Below, piece by piece: positions 39,001 to 45,000 of a stretch of DNA of 64,000 nt (its first letter is position 1; each line of letters begins with the position of its first letter). The position numbers are program-made. Source of the stretch: Candidatus Eremiobacteria bacterium (lineage in GTDB: Bacteria; Vulcanimicrobiota; Vulcanimicrobiia; Vulcanimicrobiales; Vulcanimicrobiaceae); assembly GCA_963758295.1 (NCBI GenBank), contig CAVWUU010000003.1:160001-224000 (forward strand). Direction: 5' to 3'.

Positions 39001-42000
39001 CCCGGCATCGGAAATGCGCGCCGGTACGTAGGCTGGCGAATGCTGCAAGCCGACGGCTCGCCCGCCGGAGCCAACGTACTCCGCGCCGCCGTGGAGCAGC
39101 TCCTGTGCAACCCGGCCATCGAAAAACCAATCTACTAGAGGCAGAATGAATCGACCGTATACCATTGCGACGCTAGGGTCGCACTCGGCCCTGCAGATTC
39201 TCAAGGGTGCGCATGACGAAGGTTTCAAGACCCTCGCTATTGCGAATCGCGAAACGGAGCGGCTCTACCGGTCGTTTCGTTTCATCGACGAAGTCATCGG
39301 CGTCGACAAGTATTCGGAGTTTCTTTCGCTCATCGGCGAACTCGAACGCCGCAAAGTCATCATCGTTCCGCACGGATCCTTCGTTGCGTACTTGTCGCTG
39401 GAAGAGCACAAGCAGATGACGGTGCCGTACTTCGGCAACAAAGCCGTGCTCGATTGGGAAGCAAGCCGCGAACTTCAACGCGACTGGCTGACGCGTGCGG
39501 GAATCACGATGCCGCGTCAGTTCAAGAGCGGCAAAGAGATCGACCGGCCCGTCATCGTGAAGCTCTACGGAGCGGGCGGCGGTAAAGGGTATATGTTCAT
39601 CCGCGACGCTTCCGACTTCGAAGCGCGGACTGCACATTTGCACGAACAGTTCACGATCCAGGAATACATCATCGGCGTTCCGCTTTACATCCATTATTTC
39701 TATTCGCCGATCGAAGACAAGTTGGAAATCATGTCGATGGACCGGCGCTACGAAACGAACGTCGACTCGCTCGGACGCATTCCGGCGGCCGCGCAAGAAG
39801 GCATGGACGTGAGCCCGTCCTACGTCGTGGTCGGCAATCAGCCGGTAAGCTTGCGCGAATCGATGCTTGCCGAAGCGCTGCGCATGGGTGAAAACGTGGT
39901 GCGCGTGAGTAAAGAAATTTGCGGGCCCAAGGGTCTCTTCGGAGCATTTTGCATCGAGACGATCATCACGCCGGACATGCAATTTTACATCATGGAGATT
40001 TCGGCCCGTATCGTCGCGGGAACGAACTTGTTCATCGACGGGTCGCCGTACTCGTACCTGAATTATTCTGAACCGATGTCCACCGGACGCCGCATCGCGC
40101 GCGAGATCAAGAACGCACTTCTCACCAACAATTTGCGTTTAGTCCTTGATGACTCGAGCAAGCTTTAGCCCCAAGACCCTGCTGCGCGCGGCGCGCGGGC
40201 TAGCGCCGGCGCTGCTGGCGCTAATTCTCGTGCCGGCGCCCGCCGGCGCGACCTTGGTTGCCGACCCGCAAGTGTTATACGCGCAAATGAAAAGCGCATA
40301 CGATAAAGCGGGCGCGAACGGCTGGGACTTCCACGATCAGGAAGTCTATCTTTCGACGATCTTCAACGCGGGACGAGCGTATTCGCTGCAACGGCCAAGC
40401 GACGCTGCATATGGCGAAATTGCAACGCTGACCGTGCAAATCGGCAGCTCGCTGCATTTCAACCCGCTTACCAATCATGACGCGACCGCGTGGTACGTGC
40501 GCGAAGCCGCCGAGTGGGTCACCAAGAATTCGACCGACAAGCAGCTGCTGGACGGTGCTCAGGCGCTATTGCAGCGCGTCAATTCGGAAGAAGATCCCGA
40601 AGCGTTAGCACGGCTTGCGGATCAAGACGCAAAGGCCAACGTCGACGCATATCCTCACAACGTCGATTCGTCTCTGCAAGAGGTCGAGGCAAATTGGCGC
40701 TCGTGGCTGCTGACCCACGACGCCTCGTGGCGTTCTCTCGCGCTCGAGCGCGCGTCGCAGCCGGATTTCCCGCTCGCTCATCTGCCGACGTCCTGGGGCC
40801 CCGAGTTCCTTCAGTCCGCAAACAACGCCGCATCCGGCGTCGACGGCTTCACCTCGGGCGATCAGAAGAACGGCAAGATCATCACGGAACGCGTGAAGAG
40901 CCTTCCCGAACTGCGCGTCATTGCGAGCGTCAAAGCGGTGCCGCACGACGTCTACCTCTCGACGCTTGCGCCGGCCGACGAATACTTCGGACGCATGGGC
41001 TACTCGGTGCTTGGCATTCAGAACGAGCTCAAGCACATCAACTTCATGCTCGACTATAAGTACGGCAATCGCGAAGCTTCGCAGACGCTCCTCGTCGCCG
41101 AAGCGATCGACGACATGCACAAGGTCTATCCGCGCGACCGCGACATGCCGAAGCTGCTGCTCTCGTGCATGACGACGTTAGACCGAATGACGAGCGGCGA
41201 CACGAAAGCGGAATCGTCGCATTTGCGATCGATTTTGACGGTCGAATACCAGGATTCGCCCGAAGCGCGAAAGGTCTTAAACCCCGAGGCAGCATCGTAA
41301 TACACTTCTTGTAGAAGCCTGTCCACGGAGGTGCCGGGATGGATGTCGTTATCGCCGACCGCATTCAATTTGCGTTCACGATCATGTTCCATTACCTCTT
41401 TCCCATCACGACGATGGGACTCGTTCCGTTCGTAGCTCTTTACACGATCAAGGCGGCGCGCGGCGATACGGAATCGGCCGCTGCGGCGGCGTTCTGGACG
41501 AAAATTTTTGCGATAAACTTCGCAATCGGCGTCGTTACCGGGATTCCCATGGAATTTCAGTTCGGCACCAACTGGGCGGCGTTTGCCGCGCGCAGCGGCT
41601 CGGTCGTCGGGCAGCCTCTGGCTATGGAAGGCATCTACGCATTTTTCGCCGAGTCGATTTTCCTCGGCGTTTTGTTTTATGGACGCGACCGTCTGCCGGG
41701 CGCATTGCATGCGGCGTCGGCCGTTCTTGTGTGGTTCGCGGCGTGGCTGTCGGGCTTTTTCATTACGGTCACCGATGCGTGGATGCAACACCCCGTCGGC
41801 TATCGCGTAGCCGCTGGGGGCCAAATCGAAATGACGAGCCTGGCGTCGGTGATCTTCTCGCCGTTCGCCTGGTGGCAATACGTGCACGTCATTACCGGAG
41901 CGCTCGTGACGGGCGGCTTCGTCGTTGCCGGCATCGGCTCATACTACTTGCTCGCGCGCCGTGAGACGTCGCTCGGACGGCGATTTGTCCGGTCCGGCAT

Positions 42001-45000
42001 AATCGTCGCACTGATTTTCTCGCTGCTTGCGGTCTTTCCGACGGGCGACCGCAACGGTGCAAACGTCACGCAGTATCAACCTATCAAACTTGCCGCCATG
42101 GAAGGGCTTTTCGAAAGCTCGAACGGCGCGCCGCTTGCGATCATCGGCATGCCCGATACGAAGAACCACAAACTCATCGATCCCGTCCTCGTTCCCGACG
42201 TTTTAAGCTTTCTCGCATACGGCAACTTCAACGCGCCGGTAAAAGGCTTGCGCGGCTACGCCACGGAGCTGTGGCCACCCGTAGAACTGACGTATTACGC
42301 ATATCACGTTATGGTGGGGCTCGGCACGATCTTCGCCGGCGTTGCGGCGCTCGGGGTGCTGCTGCTTTTGCTCAAACGGCTCTTCCAAACGCGCTTGATG
42401 CTCTGGCTGATCATGCTGGTGATGCCTTTCCCGTACGTTGCGAACGAAGCGGGTTGGGTCACAACTGAAGTGGGACGGCAGCCGTGGATCATTTACGGCA
42501 TCATGCGGACCGCCGATGCGACGTCGCCCACCGTCGTTACGGGCGAGACAATTTTCACGACGATCGGTTTTGCAGGCATGTATTTCTTGCTTGGCGTGCT
42601 GTTCTTATACTTAGTCCTGCGGGAAATCGGCAGCGGTCCGAGTGCGGCCGGCGAACACGGCGGAGTCGTGGAGGCGATGTCATGAGCATCACGGCCTTCG
42701 TCGTTATCGCCATAATGCTCGCTGCATATGCGGTTCTCGACGGATACGATCTGGGCGTCGCTTCGATTGCACCACTCGTTGGAAAGACCGATAGCGAGCG
42801 GTTCGCCTCCATGCAGGCCATCGGCCCGTTCTGGAACGGGAACGAAGTGTGGCTCATCGCTGCAGGTGCGGCGCTTTTCGCGTTGTTTCCGCGCGCGTAT
42901 GCTTCGGCGTTCTCAGGCTTTTATCTGCCGTTCATGGTGATTCTGTGGCTGCTGATGTTTCGCGGCGTCGCGTTGGAGCTGCGCTCGCATTTCCCCAGCG
43001 AGATGTGGCACACGTTTTGGGACGCGTGCTTTTCTGCCGCAAGTACGCTGCTGGTTCTCATCTTTGGCGTGGCACTCGGCAACTTGATTCGCGGATTGCC
43101 GCTCGACGACAAAGGCTTCTTTCAGGGCACGTTCGCGTTTTTACTCAACCCATACGCATTGCTTGTCGGTCTTTTCGCCGTCGTAGCGCTTGCGCAGCAC
43201 GGCAGTGGATTTTTGTTGCTTCGGCTCGAGGGAGCGCCGGCGGACCGCGCGCGCAAGATGCGCCCGCGCCTTCTGGCCGGAACGCTCGCGTTTTTTGTAG
43301 CGGTCTCGGCCGTAACCGCCCACATGCGTGGAATGCCGGGCACGCCCTGGGGCGTTATCGTACCGTTGCTAGCGTTGGCGGCGTTGGCATGGACGTGGTT
43401 TGAAAACGGCCGCGCGCGATACTTGCAAGCGTTTGTCGCCTCCTCGCTCTTCATCGCGCTGTTGGTCGTTACGGCCGCGATGACGATGTATCCGTATTTG
43501 CTCCCCTTGTATCCGGCAGGCGGGGGCCTCTCGATCTACGATGCGTCGCCGTCGCCTACGGCGCTCGCCAGCGCACTGACGGTCACGATCGTCGGTCTGT
43601 GCGCCGTCCTGATTTACGGCAGTTGGGTCTGGCGCCGTTTGGCGGGAAAGGTCCGCGTTGGCGAATAACCGCGCTGGCGTGAACGACAACGCCGCTCGAG
43701 CCCTCGAAAAATACGACCGCTCAAAGCTCACTCTTTGTTCCATCGGAAGCCATTCGGCGCTGGAAGTGGCCTACGGCGCGCGCGCACAGGGCTTGCGGAA
43801 TCTTGTCGTAACTGCGAAGGGCCGCGAACGCACGTACACGGAGCATTACCTGCGCAAGGAATCGCCGGTACCGCGCGGATGCGTTGATTCGGTCCTGGAA
43901 CTGGAGAAGTTCACCGACCTCTTAAACGACGGCGTCCAACAGCGGCTGCTGGACGAAAACGTGATCTTTCTTGCCAACCGGTCGTTCGAAGTCTACCTGC
44001 ACCAAAAATTCAGCTACGACGAAATCGAGAACGGCATGCGAGTGCCGTTTTTCGGCAACCGCTTCTTGCTGCGCGCGGAAGAACGCGACGAAGCCTCAAA
44101 TCAGTATTCATTGATGCAGAAGGCGGGCATCCGTCATCCGCAGCAGTTCGATTCGCCGGATCAGATCGACCGGCTAGTGATGGTGAAAGCGCCGCACGCC
44201 AAAGTCAGCTTCGAGCGAGCCTTCTTTGTGGTGTCGTCGCCACAGGAGTACCGTGAGGTCAGCGCCCGGCTCATTCGCGACGGAATGCTTACCGAATCCG
44301 GTTTACGAGACGCCGTCATCGAGGAGTACGCGCTCGGACCGTCGGTCAACCTGAATTTCTTTTATTCGCCGATTCTCGGCGAGTTAGAGCTTAGCGGAAC
44401 GGACACGCGGCGCCAAACCAATCTCGAGGGATTCCGTAACGTCCCGCCGTCGGTATTCGAGGCGCTGCGCAACGTCCCGATGCGTCTGGAAGAGGCGGGA
44501 CATATCGCCGCGACGCTTACCGAGTCGACGCTGGAGAAGGCCTTCGAGATGGGCGAGCGATTCGTTGCCGCCGCACGCGAAGCCAATCCGCCCGGCGTAA
44601 TGGGACCCTTCGCGCTGCAGTGCGTAATCGTCGCCGGACCCCCCAAAGAATTTGTTTGCTACGATGTGTCGTTGCGCATCCCGGGATCGCCCGGCACCCG
44701 CTACACCCCGTATTCGGCATACCGATGGGGGCGCGATGTGTCGGTGGGCGAGCGAGTCGCAATGGAGCTCGTAATGGCCCGCGACGCCGGCCGGCTGGGG
44801 GAAATTCTTACCTAACTTAGGTTCATATGGGTGTATGCGCCCGCTTCCCAGCCCTGGAATGCTTAAGACTTCCGGACCGTTGCCTATTTTAGTCGGGCAT
44901 GCTAGGGTGAGGGGTGTCTAGGTATCGCAGTCGGTTACCATGTTTGGTCTAGCGAGTCGATTCCGAGAACAATAACTACCAAGTCCGAGGAGTCCTCGTT

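Follow-up and report, generated by a model that had tools for sequence, protein, structure and literature searches.

Two diverged PurP-family genes on either side of cytochrome bd genes in a bacterial purine operon

A purine operon carrying two PurP genes

The window, a 64,000-nucleotide stretch of contig CAVWUU010000003.1 from a Candidatus Eremiobacteria bacterium of the class Vulcanimicrobiia, carries a series of purine biosynthesis genes. Two PurP-family genes lie on either side of cydAB, as the initial annotation had described; they are located inside the purine operon, and an exported protein, X384, that the annotation did not mention is encoded between PurP1 and cydA. The features are as follows:

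32989..34404, + strand, purB (adenylosuccinate lyase), the operon's first gene; Lyase_1 8e-36, ADSL_C 1.2e-17
34426..35394, + strand, purC (SAICAR synthetase); SAICAR_synt 5.5e-60 over residues 7-235
35189..35629, + strand, 146-aa ORF in a different frame, weakly PurE-like, occupying the purC-purL gap
35622..37931, + strand, small purL; AIRS, AIRS_C, FGAR-AT_linker
37928..38698, + strand, purQ; GATase_5 1.7e-36
38695..39138, + strand, X147, putative PurS-like tandem in a single chain, from fold matches
39146..40168, + strand, PurP1, ATP-grasp protein of PurP II / cluster Ib type; 340 aa, DUF1246 and DUF1297
40149..41300, + strand, X384, predicted exported protein of all-alpha helical repeats; signal-peptide-like N-terminus, structure model
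41339..42685, + strand, cydA (cytochrome bd subunit I); Cyt_bd_oxida_I 1.5e-143
42682..43668, + strand, cydB (cytochrome bd subunit II); Cyt_bd_oxida_II 1.7e-81
43658..44815, + strand, PurP2, paralogue of PurP III / cluster II type; DUF1246 and DUF1297
45002..45331, + strand, small treble-clef zinc-finger protein, final ORF 5' of the terminator; zf_Tbcl 2.5e-20, zf_Tbcl_2 9e-19
45348..45377, unstranded, strong terminator-like hairpin, bidirectional; stem of 13 pairs, flanked by a T run on either side
45498..46328, + strand, tpx-like thiol peroxidase; Redoxin 8.3e-21, NF001808 179.9 bits (cut-off 123)
46374..47918, + strand, guaA; GATase, GMP_synt_C
47921..49189, + strand, purD; GARS_N, GARS_A, GARS_C
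51457..52827, + strand, purF; GATase_6/7, Pribosyltran

The reading frames of PurP1 and X384, of cydA and cydB (the cydB start lies on the cydA stop, ATGA), and of cydB and PurP2 all overlap. A scan for terminators gave 21 matches where 22.1 are expected by chance, and 20 of these are weak; the sole strong hairpin lies 3' of PurP2 and probably marks the end of the transcription unit. Because of these overlaps and the position of the only strong terminator, a single transcription unit that includes both PurP genes is likely.

Several reading frames deserve comment. In purC the domain stops at about residue 235, and what follows, the ORF's final ∼85 codons, resembles read-through; the 146-aa ORF in a different frame matches AIRC with 24.9 bits (1.6e-5), short of the cut-off of 30, and TIGR01162 at 6.9e-8. 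In the tpx-like ORF the domain covers residues 108-272, so that the actual start is probably further downstream. With 199.8 bits, cydB also passes the TIGR00203 cut-off of 117.3, and cydA is the only one found in the genome. X147 scores merely 0.048 against Pfam PurS, but its modeled structure (pLDDT 93.4) has as its best Foldseek match large PurL's N-terminal domain (3ujn, 3.5e-4, TMq 0.56-0.62), with PurS chains at probabilities of 0.93-0.99. Among 75 class loci, 71 have it upstream of PurP1, and a second PurS was not found in the genome. Judged by its model, X147 is most probably a tandem PurS-like part of FGAM synthetase, and not specific to PurP. Profile searches placed X384 (383 aa) in no known family, and its model (pLDDT 88.9) matches none of the PDB folds at E≤1e-3.

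PurP1 and PurP2 are diverged paralogues under constraint

PurP1 and PurP2 are the only DUF1297 genes in the genome. Matches to DUF1246 and DUF1297 have E-values of 2.6e-42 and 2.1e-67, respectively, for PurP1 and of 1.1e-32 and 3e-52 for PurP2; PurP2 is 385 aa from a TTG start, and the 378 aa given initially reflects a later one. The closest solved relative of PurP1 is PF1517 (2r84, 2.4e-100), followed by MJ0136 (2r7k, 1.4e-85), and those of PurP2 are 2r7k (2.1e-60) and 2r84 (1.8e-37). Aligned as a pair with MAFFT, they share 32% identity with each other, against 29% in the initial annotation. In a tree of 76 rows, PurP1 and PurP2 fall into two deep clades, A and B, separated with SH-aLRT 100. 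We assign them on this basis to PurP II (cluster Ib) and PurP III (cluster II), an ancient pair of paralogues, although the match of clade B to cluster II is indirect, because PF0421 and other named cluster II proteins are absent from the trees. Their low mutual identity is then attributable to an ancient duplication common to all carriers of the pair, as discussed in PMC3261824 and PMC6486802.

Both proteins retain the equivalents of MJ0136 His27, Ser94, Ser266, and Arg314, whose roles are those given in PMC3261824, and PurP1 also retains the Gly-rich loop; it is a candidate subunit of a formate- and ATP-dependent FAICAR synthetase. PurP2, with ERAFF in its place, lacks the Gly-rich ATP loop, as does the whole of clade B, and clade B has invariant residues of its own (E186-R187, R108, H282, and Q321 in PurP2 numbering). 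Strong purifying selection acts on both genes. Mean identity across class loci is 83.8% for PurP1 (75 loci), the highest in the operon, and 71.3% for PurP2 (62 loci), compared with 77.5% for purC, 73.5% for purB, 73.1% for guaA, 65.3% for purD, 61.4% for purQ, and 58.9% for purL; dN is 0.046-0.084 for PurP1 and 0.095-0.181 for PurP2, with dS saturated. A crude mirror-tree test over 35 loci gave r = 0.43 for PurP1 against PurP2 (partial r = 0.19), with no special coevolution signal for the pair, and a higher value for PurP1 against purC (0.87). Searches for PurP1-PurP2 fusion proteins found none.

Distribution, gene order, and origin of the pair

The PurP family is strongly enriched in the host lineage, as first noted, and the reported 81% of genomes in the phylum is reproduced (326/401). 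Nearly all matches are in one class, however, with the PurP family in 325 of 332 of its genomes and in only 1 of 69 from the other families of the phylum. That lone match is a single, different clade-A gene, 46% identical to PurP1, and the trait is thus class-wide, not phylum-wide as had been proposed.

Gene order was compared over 65 class-type loci with both PurP genes, at least three of which are duplicates of one genome. PurP1 and PurP2 are adjacent in 19 of these (plus one with an insert of >800 nt), are separated by X384 alone in 24 (plus three with an extra insert), and by X384 with cydAB in 17 (plus one with an extra insert). The pair is side by side in the class's other order and in other families, including 5/5 loci fetched from families f2 and f3, and also in part of family f1. 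Outside the class, 21/25 loci have a PurP1-type gene with a PurP2-type gene next in line and in the same orientation, and the other four are cut by contig ends or have a single PurP type only. The ancestral arrangement is therefore PurP1 directly beside PurP2, and X384 and cydAB are later insertions in part of family f1. The tightly overlapping frames, here and at 17 other loci, might suggest a functional tie to cytochrome bd, but with cydAB inside the pair in just 18/65 loci the link is derived synteny, a caveat that the initial annotation itself had raised. Moreover, among 12 class genomes checked that lack cydAB within the pair, cydA is located elsewhere in seven and is absent from five. 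Because cydAB was inserted later, the oxidase is presumably a passenger of the operon, rather than a partner of PurP.

In each of the trees for PurP1 and PurP2, the class is monophyletic at 100 with the same internal split (f1 and f2 versus f3), and the same CPR-bacterial and DPANN-archaeal loci are the nearest neighbors (support 92 for the PurP1 clade and 91 for PurP2), with nearest outside representatives at ∼49-51% identity for both proteins. These organisms, which have the same pair, are closer relatives than the Pyrococcus and Methanopyrus proteins named originally; both trees are polytomies at the level of donor and transfer direction. The initial annotation envisaged two independent captures, one Pyrococcus-like and one Methanopyrus-like, fixed across the phylum and functionally tied to cytochrome bd. 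We consider this highly improbable; the best named matches are indeed from different archaea, and the copies are just ∼30% identical, but an ancient duplication explains the low identity, and the deep split of the clades, the linkage outside the class, and the shared neighbors all speak against it. A single acquisition of the linked pair fits best, given the adjacency within the class and in outside relatives, and the common neighbors in both trees.

A possible formate-fed step and its relation to known systems

Our preferred account, to which we give a probability of roughly 0.6, is that the class ancestor acquired an adjacent PurP II/PurP III pair once, that it was placed between the purS and guaA genes of the purine operon and was vertically inherited thereafter, and that in part of family f1, X384 entered between the PurP genes first and the cell's own cydAB afterwards. 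PurP1 would be the ATP-grasp catalyst converting AICAR, ATP, and formate to FAICAR, with PurP2 acting jointly with it, probably as a mixed oligomer, and the IMP cyclohydrolase domain of PurH closing the ring afterwards. PurH's folate-dependent AICAR formyltransferase domain would thereby have a formate-fed alternative in the pair, similar to PurT beside PurN in Escherichia coli.

An intact PurH (524 aa, with MGS and AICARFT domains) coexists with the pair here, as initially stated, and PurH is present in 121/121 class genomes, so that the pair is not required for completing the known pathway. Neither FTHFS, as also stated initially, nor PurO, PurT, or formate-producing PurU was found in the genome (assembly 82% complete). 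PurN and two FolD genes are present together with PurH, and purine synthesis is not folate-independent as had been suggested; at most, a formate-fed alternative is available for one step. The genome encodes a molybdoenzyme similar to formate dehydrogenase alpha, with one in-frame TGA, but it scores only 156 bits against a model cut-off of 666.

Joint action of the two proteins is consistent with the co-occurrence of PurP II and III in the same 61 archaea, and with a II3:III3 heterohexamer proposed for them, both as given in PMC6486802. A predicted PurP1-PurP2 complex scores 0.52, whereas the best of three controls scores 0.00, with at least 92% contact agreement between runs and partner pLDDT of at least 84. 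The mark that it passes is reached by 116/157 solved complexes and 2/215 mismatched pairs; among those that pass, just 18 of the 157, but both mismatches, do so with a score no higher than 0.60. The prediction thus weakly supports joint action, and may merely mirror likeness to the solved homo-hexamers of the PurP family.

Alternatively, PurP1 alone may formylate AICAR, with PurP2 cyclizing FAICAR to IMP or performing another ATP-independent step, in which case the two proteins together would bypass PurH completely. The Gly-rich ATP lid is missing from PurP2, as from all of clade B with its own invariants, yet PurP2 keeps the residues holding the AICAR phosphate and the formyl group. Furthermore, among 12 genomes from outside the class that carry the pair, three (two CPR, one Woesearchaeota) show no PurH at all, its AICARFT domain included, and no PurO, and their sole MGS/IMPCH domain is in a ∼1100-aa frame, taken as CarB from length alone. 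Nonetheless, clade B retains K177, a Glu-Glu pair, and an Asp/Arg set, which we take to be the ATP-grasp lysine, the hinge, and the metal and formyl site, respectively, and this suggests that nucleotide binding is retained. The PurH cyclohydrolase domain is also always present in the host class. Brown et al. describe the same pattern for Pyrococci and Crenarchaeota and raise this idea, although they call the pattern imperfect and the idea untested (PMC3261824). On balance we think it unlikely.

The initial annotation assumed FAICAR synthetase activity, which is less certain, because FAICAR synthase activity was not detectable for Pyrococcus furiosus PurP II (PF1517) or PurP III, although PurP II binds ATP and AICAR (PMC3261824 and PMC6486802). 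The pair could thus ligate another formyl or carboxyl donor or use another imidazole nucleotide, with the FAICAR synthetase annotation being wrong. Zhang et al., as reported in PMC6486802, speculate that PurP II has a different formyl source and that PurP III activity is different or absent. Consistent with this, the NCBIfam equivalog cut-offs are far from reached (385 versus 590 for PurP1; 242 versus 556 for PurP2), and the pair is kept despite PurH being universal in the class. However, the residues contacting formyl and AICAR are conserved, the genes are members of purine operons in the class as well as in CPR bacteria and archaea (for archaea also in PMC3261824), and Sulfolobus solfataricus extracts incorporate labeled formate during conversion of ZMP to IMP (PMC3261824). 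We regard such other chemistry as distinctly improbable, and continue to favor joint FAICAR synthesis by PurP1 and PurP2.

Archaeal PurP II and III (Brown et al. 2011, PMC3261824; PMC6486802; e.g., PF1517, PDB 2r84-2r87, with PF0421) similarly are two deeply diverged paralogues. Each genome has one of either kind, the two are often neighbors and near purine genes (purB, guaA), and they coexist with PurH in 10 archaea (PMC6486802). The pair described here differs in belonging to a bacterial class with a mesophile-type, high-GC host, and in being split by X384 and cydAB. Its presence in a bacterial class contrasts with published statements that PurP is confined to Archaea (PMC4177761, 2014; PMC6486802, 2019, covering 1,403 complete genomes). 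Methanocaldococcus jannaschii PurP (MJ0136, PurP I / cluster Ia, PDB 2r7k) shares fold and family with both proteins, and with PurP1 the Gly-rich loop in addition to the four residues noted above. Alone among PurP proteins it has been shown to be a formate- and ATP-dependent FAICAR synthetase, and it acts with PurO as the product of one gene, in an organism lacking folate and PurH, whereas the host has two paralogues, one without the Gly-rich loop, and a full PurH.

The pairs of CPR/Patescibacteria (Microgenomates group) and DPANN archaea have the PurP1-type gene followed by the PurP2-type gene, with frames nearly abutting and pur genes nearby, and PurH is present in 9/12 of these genomes. Unlike in the host, purB is usually next and no tandem-PurS gene lies upstream; identities to the host proteins are 53-64% for PurP1 and 45-52% for PurP2. 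In E. coli, PurN and PurT are folate-dependent and formate/ATP-dependent enzymes, respectively, for the same formylation step. The logic is the same as proposed here, an ATP-grasp formate enzyme beside a folate-dependent transformylase (PurT is also discussed in PMC3261824), but PurT is a proven single enzyme acting at the GAR step, whereas the host pair concerns the AICAR step.

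Two PurP genes in the purine operon

As the initial annotation had described, the window contains two PurP-family genes on either side of cydAB, although that description missed X384, a gene for an exported protein located between PurP1 and cydA. Both PurP products score well above the Pfam gathering cut-offs (25 bits for DUF1246 and 23.8 bits for DUF1297), with 144.1 and 226.7 bits for PurP1 and 113 and 177.4 bits for PurP2, and both align over their full lengths with PurPs of solved structure (PurP1 with 2r84 at 2.4e-100 and 2r7k at 1.4e-85; PurP2 with 2r7k at 2.1e-60 and 2r84 at 1.8e-37). 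They share 32% identity and are the only genes with these domains in the host genome. The cytochrome bd genes have adjacent subunit I and subunit II domains and translational coupling through an ATGA overlap.

Features of the purine operon and the region downstream
32989-34404, plus strand: purB, a gene of the purine operon
34426-35394, plus strand: purC; its SAICAR-synthetase domain ends near residue 235
35189-35629, plus strand: 146-aa ORF, weakly PurE-like, in a frame different from that of purC
35622-37931, plus strand: purL
37928-38698, plus strand: purQ
38695-39138, plus strand: X147, tandem PurS-like
39146-40168, plus strand: PurP1 (DUF1246 and DUF1297)
40149-41300, plus strand: X384, exported protein of 383 aa
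41339-42685, plus strand: cydA (Cyt_bd_oxida_I, 1.5e-143)
42682-43668, plus strand: cydB (Cyt_bd_oxida_II, 1.7e-81)
43658-44815, plus strand: PurP2 (DUF1246 and DUF1297)
45002-45331, plus strand: small zinc-finger ORF, 109 aa (zf_Tbcl and zf_Tbcl_2)
45348-45377: strong hairpin terminator, 3' of the zinc-finger ORF
Downstream of the terminator, plus strand: a tpx-like gene, guaA, purD and, farther on, purF

Because the frames of PurP1 and X384, of cydA and cydB (the ATGA), and of cydB and PurP2 overlap in this genome, and no strong terminator was found in the operon upstream of 45348, the segment from PurP1 through X384 and cydAB to PurP2 is likely to be co-transcribed, as far as its layout indicates. 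A look for RNA runs covering 38600-45400 found none; two DNA runs had small shares of 0.08 and 0.07. A composition scan gave a GC content of 0.57 to 0.61 over the PurP genes versus 0.58 to 0.64 nearby, and comparison with the flanks revealed no GC anomaly at either gene.

Several other features of the operon deserve comment. The purC ORF continues for ∼85 codons past the end of its domain as an Arg/Ala-rich tail, which is overlapped by the 146-aa ORF; the latter matches Pfam AIRC at 1.6e-5 (below the cut-off) and TIGR01162 at 6.9e-8, and the arrangement may represent a degenerate PurE-like gene, a frameshift, or a miscalled overlap. A purC-purL gap of ∼450 to 600 nt is retained in most of the loci checked from the host's class (hereafter, the class). 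The zinc-finger protein, with two treble-clef domains, is encoded between PurP2 and the terminator. X147 is a single chain of 147 aa with a weak Pfam PurS match (0.048), but its model is confident (pLDDT, 93.4), with the N-terminal domain of large PurL and PurS chains as the best fold matches; the motifs IPDN, FNPNKH, and LLCNPA are kept, and no other PurS was found in the host genome. The model thus points to a single-chain tandem PurS, encoded beside purL and purQ, and X147 was rejected as a PurP-specific partner in favor of this assignment.

Subtypes and origin of the pair

A profile of both proteins matched 866 representatives (E ≤ 1e-3) among clusters at 50% identity, and a family tree built from 74 full-length representatives and both window proteins has two clades, separated with a support of 100: clade A, with PurP1 (32 rows), and clade B, with PurP2 (44 rows). 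In the account of PMC3261824 and PMC6486802, a cluster Ib gene (PurP II) and a cluster II gene (PurP III) occur together in many archaea, one of each and often side by side, and the underlying duplication is older than archaeal diversification. PurP1 belongs to PurP II (cluster Ib): among solved structures it is closest to PF1517, a PurP II with which it groups, clade A has a support of 100, and the GAxGGxGY loop is present. Against clade A, all three solved PurPs score higher than they do against PurP2. That clade B is PurP III (cluster II) is suggested by how deep the split is, by the one-to-one pairing of PurP1-type and clade-B genes at 65 class loci and at 21 loci outside the class, and by the features running through each clade, in trees built without PF0421 or any other named member of cluster II. 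Attempts to name further rows gave little: relatives of one clade-B representative bear the NCBI name "ligase family protein" (Bathyarchaeota), homologue searches returned only close kin for PurP1 (at least 84% identity) and only its own archaeal neighborhood for the representative P0130, a cluster-member look-up named one of ten representatives (a Micrarchaeota protein), and a protein atlas search yielded only leads, to Methanobacteriota and Thermoplasmatota clusters.

The two clades differ in their nucleotide-binding signature. The Gly-rich ATP-grasp loop VK..GAxGGxGY is retained throughout clade A, including PurP1, together with invariant residues H76, N231-P233, and T293 (PurP1 numbering), whereas throughout clade B, including PurP2 and the representatives without names (among them the one with Bathyarchaeota relatives), ERAFF replaces the loop, and R108, H282, and Q321 (PurP2 numbering) are invariant; PurP2 also has two insertions of ∼10 residues relative to PurP1. 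Since ERAFF is present in all of clade B, loss of the loop is a trait of the paralogue family rather than decay in the host lineage. In MJ0136, His27, Arg314, Ser94, and Ser266 are described as contacting the formyl group and the AICAR phosphate (PMC3261824); the PurP1 equivalents are H13, R288, S78, and S239, and the aligned residues are likewise kept in PurP2. Against the NCBIfam equivalogs for formate--phosphoribosylaminoimidazolecarboxamide ligase (NF009778-NF009783), both proteins fall short of the cut-offs, with best scores of 385.1 bits versus 590 for PurP1 and 242 bits versus 556 for PurP2.

Outside the class, we collected 25 loci, with origins taken from the record titles. Their carriers are CPR/Patescibacteria (Microgenomates, Curtiss-, Davies-, and Gottesmanbacteria, Saccharimonadales, and several MAGs that bear a Gammaproteobacteria label but group with Daviesbacteria), two further bacterial MAGs (one Planctomycetales, one Chloroflexota), DPANN archaea (Micrarchaeota and Woesearchaeota), and a single MAG with the label Methanosarcinales. 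In 21 of these loci, the PurP1-type gene precedes a PurP2-type gene on the same strand, and purB usually comes next; the remaining four either run into a contig end or have one type only. Separate PurP1 and PurP2 trees (69 and 66 rows, respectively; quick IQ-TREE runs with SH-aLRT values only) both recover the class as monophyletic at 100, with the same inner split of its families f1 and f2 from f3, and with the same CPR and DPANN loci as its nearest neighbors (clade supports of 92 and 91). For both proteins, identity to the nearest representatives from outside the class is ∼49 to 51%. Because the tree neighbors and the inner split are shared and the genes are adjacent, we are highly confident, as an evolutionary account, that the linked pair was acquired once and then descended vertically. 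The proposal that PurP was taken from archaea twice does not fit with a single split at support 100, the same neighbors in both trees, and linkage outside the class; we are similarly highly confident in this account that PurP1 and PurP2 are an old paralogue pair and not two captures. At the level that bears on the donor and the direction of transfer, both trees are polytomies, and most archaeal rows are without names.

Some individual records are unusual. The Chloroflexota-labelled contig L053 has two tandem clade-A genes at 2917-4914 (58% and 49% identical to PurP1) and stops before any PurP2-type gene would show. Loci labelled Binatus (L119), proteobacterium (L090), and Rhodospirillales (L096) have the class-typical operon with X147, and six "uncultured Gammaproteobacteria" loci (L070, L085, L120, L127, L128, and L132) cluster with Daviesbacteria or other Patescibacteria. 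The taxonomy in these record titles conflicts with both the gene content and the place in the tree, and the loci L119, L090, and L096 and the "Gammaproteobacteria" loci are probably mislabelled or mis-binned MAGs.

Distribution, gene order, and constraint

Of the 401 genomes sampled from the phylum (a tally that includes 14 unpublished genomes), 326 contain DUF1297, nearly always with two matches each. However, the pair is not phylum-wide, as had been thought, but class-wide: the domain occurs in 290/296 genomes of family f1, 5/5 of f2, and 29/30 of f3, or 325/332 in the class with the host genome included, versus 1/69 in the 18 other families. The lone hit outside the class belongs to clade A, shares 46% identity with PurP1, and has no PurP2-type neighbor. 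The earlier figure of 81% for the phylum reflects the heavy share of the class among sampled genomes.

Gene order was compared by mapping the window proteins onto regions of 14 to 20 kb around the PurP1-type gene from 20 genomes (15 f1, two f2, and three f3) and onto a second set of 80 related loci. Both PurP genes are present in 65 of 75 class-type loci, at least three of which duplicate one genome.

Content between PurP1 and PurP2 in class-type loci
Nothing (adjacent genes): 19 loci, plus one with an insert of >800 nt
X384 alone: 24 loci, plus three with an extra insert
X384 and cydAB: 17 loci, plus one with an extra insert

In families f2 and f3, which include another order, the two genes are adjacent in all five loci, and therefore the ancestral order is purB-purC-…-purL-purQ-X147-PurP1-PurP2-guaA-purD, into which X384 and then cydAB were inserted within family f1. 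The host genome has no cydA besides that of the operon; among 12 class genomes lacking the insertion, cydA lies elsewhere in seven and is absent from five, and the link to cytochrome bd is thus derived synteny through a late insertion. The caution that this link might be mere synteny was well placed, with cydAB separating the pair in only 18 of 65 loci and in none of the five from f2 and f3. X384 itself is a predicted exported protein, confidently modelled as an all-alpha helical repeat that matches no family and no fold in the PDB; it is limited to part of f1 and, where present, always directly follows PurP1. We considered a role as a bd accessory protein and rejected it, because 27 loci have X384 without cydAB.

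PurP1 is the best-conserved operon protein across class loci, with a mean identity to the window of 83.8%, followed by purC (77.5%), purB (73.5%), guaA (73.1%), PurP2 (71.3%), purD (65.3%), purQ (61.4%), and purL (58.9%). Against five genomes, dN is 0.046 to 0.084 for PurP1 and 0.095 to 0.181 for PurP2; dS is saturated (1.0 to 2.6), even for a same-genus genome, such that dN/dS (∼0.04 to 0.13) is rough and only the dN ranks are usable. Neither copy is decaying.

A proposed formate-fed route beside PurH

The host encodes, as the initial annotation had noted, an intact PurH of 524 aa with MGS and AICARFT domains and a KH motif. The AICARFT domain of PurH is found in 121/121 class genomes at least 90% complete (three of them unpublished), and the pair is an addition to PurH and not a replacement. 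PurN, adjoining purM just outside the window, and two FolD genes are also present; the best "PurT" match is PurK and was rejected. FTHFS, PurO, and PurU were not found in the host assembly, which is 82% complete, and the reported lack of FTHFS thus stands on that assembly. Because PurH, PurN, and FolD are present, and PurT is absent, purine synthesis is not folate-independent as was first suggested; at most, AICAR formylation has a second, formate-fed route. As for the reported formate dehydrogenase, a formate-dehydrogenase-alpha-like molybdopterin enzyme with one in-frame TGA, possibly encoding selenocysteine, is present on the minus strand (host contig C1, 319255-321975); at 156 bits it is under the TIGR01591 cut-off.

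PurP is stated to occur in Archaea alone in the accounts of PMC4177761 (2014) and, across 1,403 complete genomes, PMC6486802 (2019), and a full-text search found no literature on PurP in Vulcanimicrobiota or CPR bacteria, although these bacterial proteins already have names in the annotation of NCBI and JGI. A whole bacterial class (325 of 332 sampled genomes) and CPR bacteria carry the PurP II and PurP III couple, a biochemical puzzle since 2008. Strong constraint persists beside an intact PurH, which argues that the couple does something PurH does not. The question is directly testable in a nonthermophilic bacterial host having relatives with or without PurH, and the main value of the pair is as a tractable bacterial system for this old problem.

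According to PMC6486802, PurP I of M. jannaschii is the only PurP with proven activity, and a II3:III3 heterohexamer has been proposed there because PurP II and PurP III always co-occur. In our data, the two types are strictly linked and co-inherited in archaea, CPR bacteria, and the class, and both genes are strongly constrained. Prediction of a PurP1-PurP2 complex gave a weak pass, with a score of 0.52 against 0.00 for the best of three controls, agreement between runs in at least 92% of contacts, and a partner pLDDT of at least 84. The pass mark is reached by 116/157 solved complexes and 2/215 mismatches; only 18 of the 157 solved complexes pass with a score of ≤0.60, the range in which both passing mismatches fall, and the result may simply reflect likeness to the solved homo-hexamers of the family. 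Two results speak against a close partnership: a crude mirror-tree test over 35 loci found no special PurP1-PurP2 signal, and no fusion was found; a search for longer proteins with PurP1 gave two, neither of them a fusion. One protein, P0291, joins a 390-aa N terminus of no known kind to a PurP1-type domain. With moderate confidence, we propose that PurP1 and PurP2 jointly would act as a formate- and ATP-dependent AICAR formyltransferase, parallel to PurH.

A rival idea is that PurP III cyclises FAICAR, and in its favor, no PurH, PurO, or separate IMPCH domain was found in three of 12 pair-carrying genomes from outside the class. These are two CPR genomes (G401 and G402) and a Woesearchaeota genome (G410); neither a PurH AICARFT domain nor PurO was found in the assemblies, and the sole MGS/IMPCH domain of each lies in a frame of ∼1100 aa, taken to be CarB. 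All three appear to share the "missing IMP cyclohydrolase" pattern described for Pyrococci and Crenarchaeota.

Both joint formylation and the cyclase idea can be accommodated in a broader reading, in which PurP II and PurP III would form a self-sufficient, obligate two-protein module for the last steps of purine synthesis, either a mixed hexamer acting as the true formate-dependent FAICAR synthetase or a formylase plus a cyclase. Because PurP1 is the most constrained operon gene even though PurH is always present, this module would be the main AICAR-to-IMP route of the class; we give this reading about one chance in four. If true, the class, which includes mesophilic bacteria with a cultured relative, would be the first convenient system for the PurP II/III puzzle. 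As reported in PMC3261824 and PMC6486802, P. furiosus PurP II, which with PurP III is the nearest characterised relative of this subtype, binds ATP and AICAR but showed no FAICAR synthase activity, and PurP III likewise showed none; a two-protein module would explain why each Pyrococcus protein was inactive alone in 2008.
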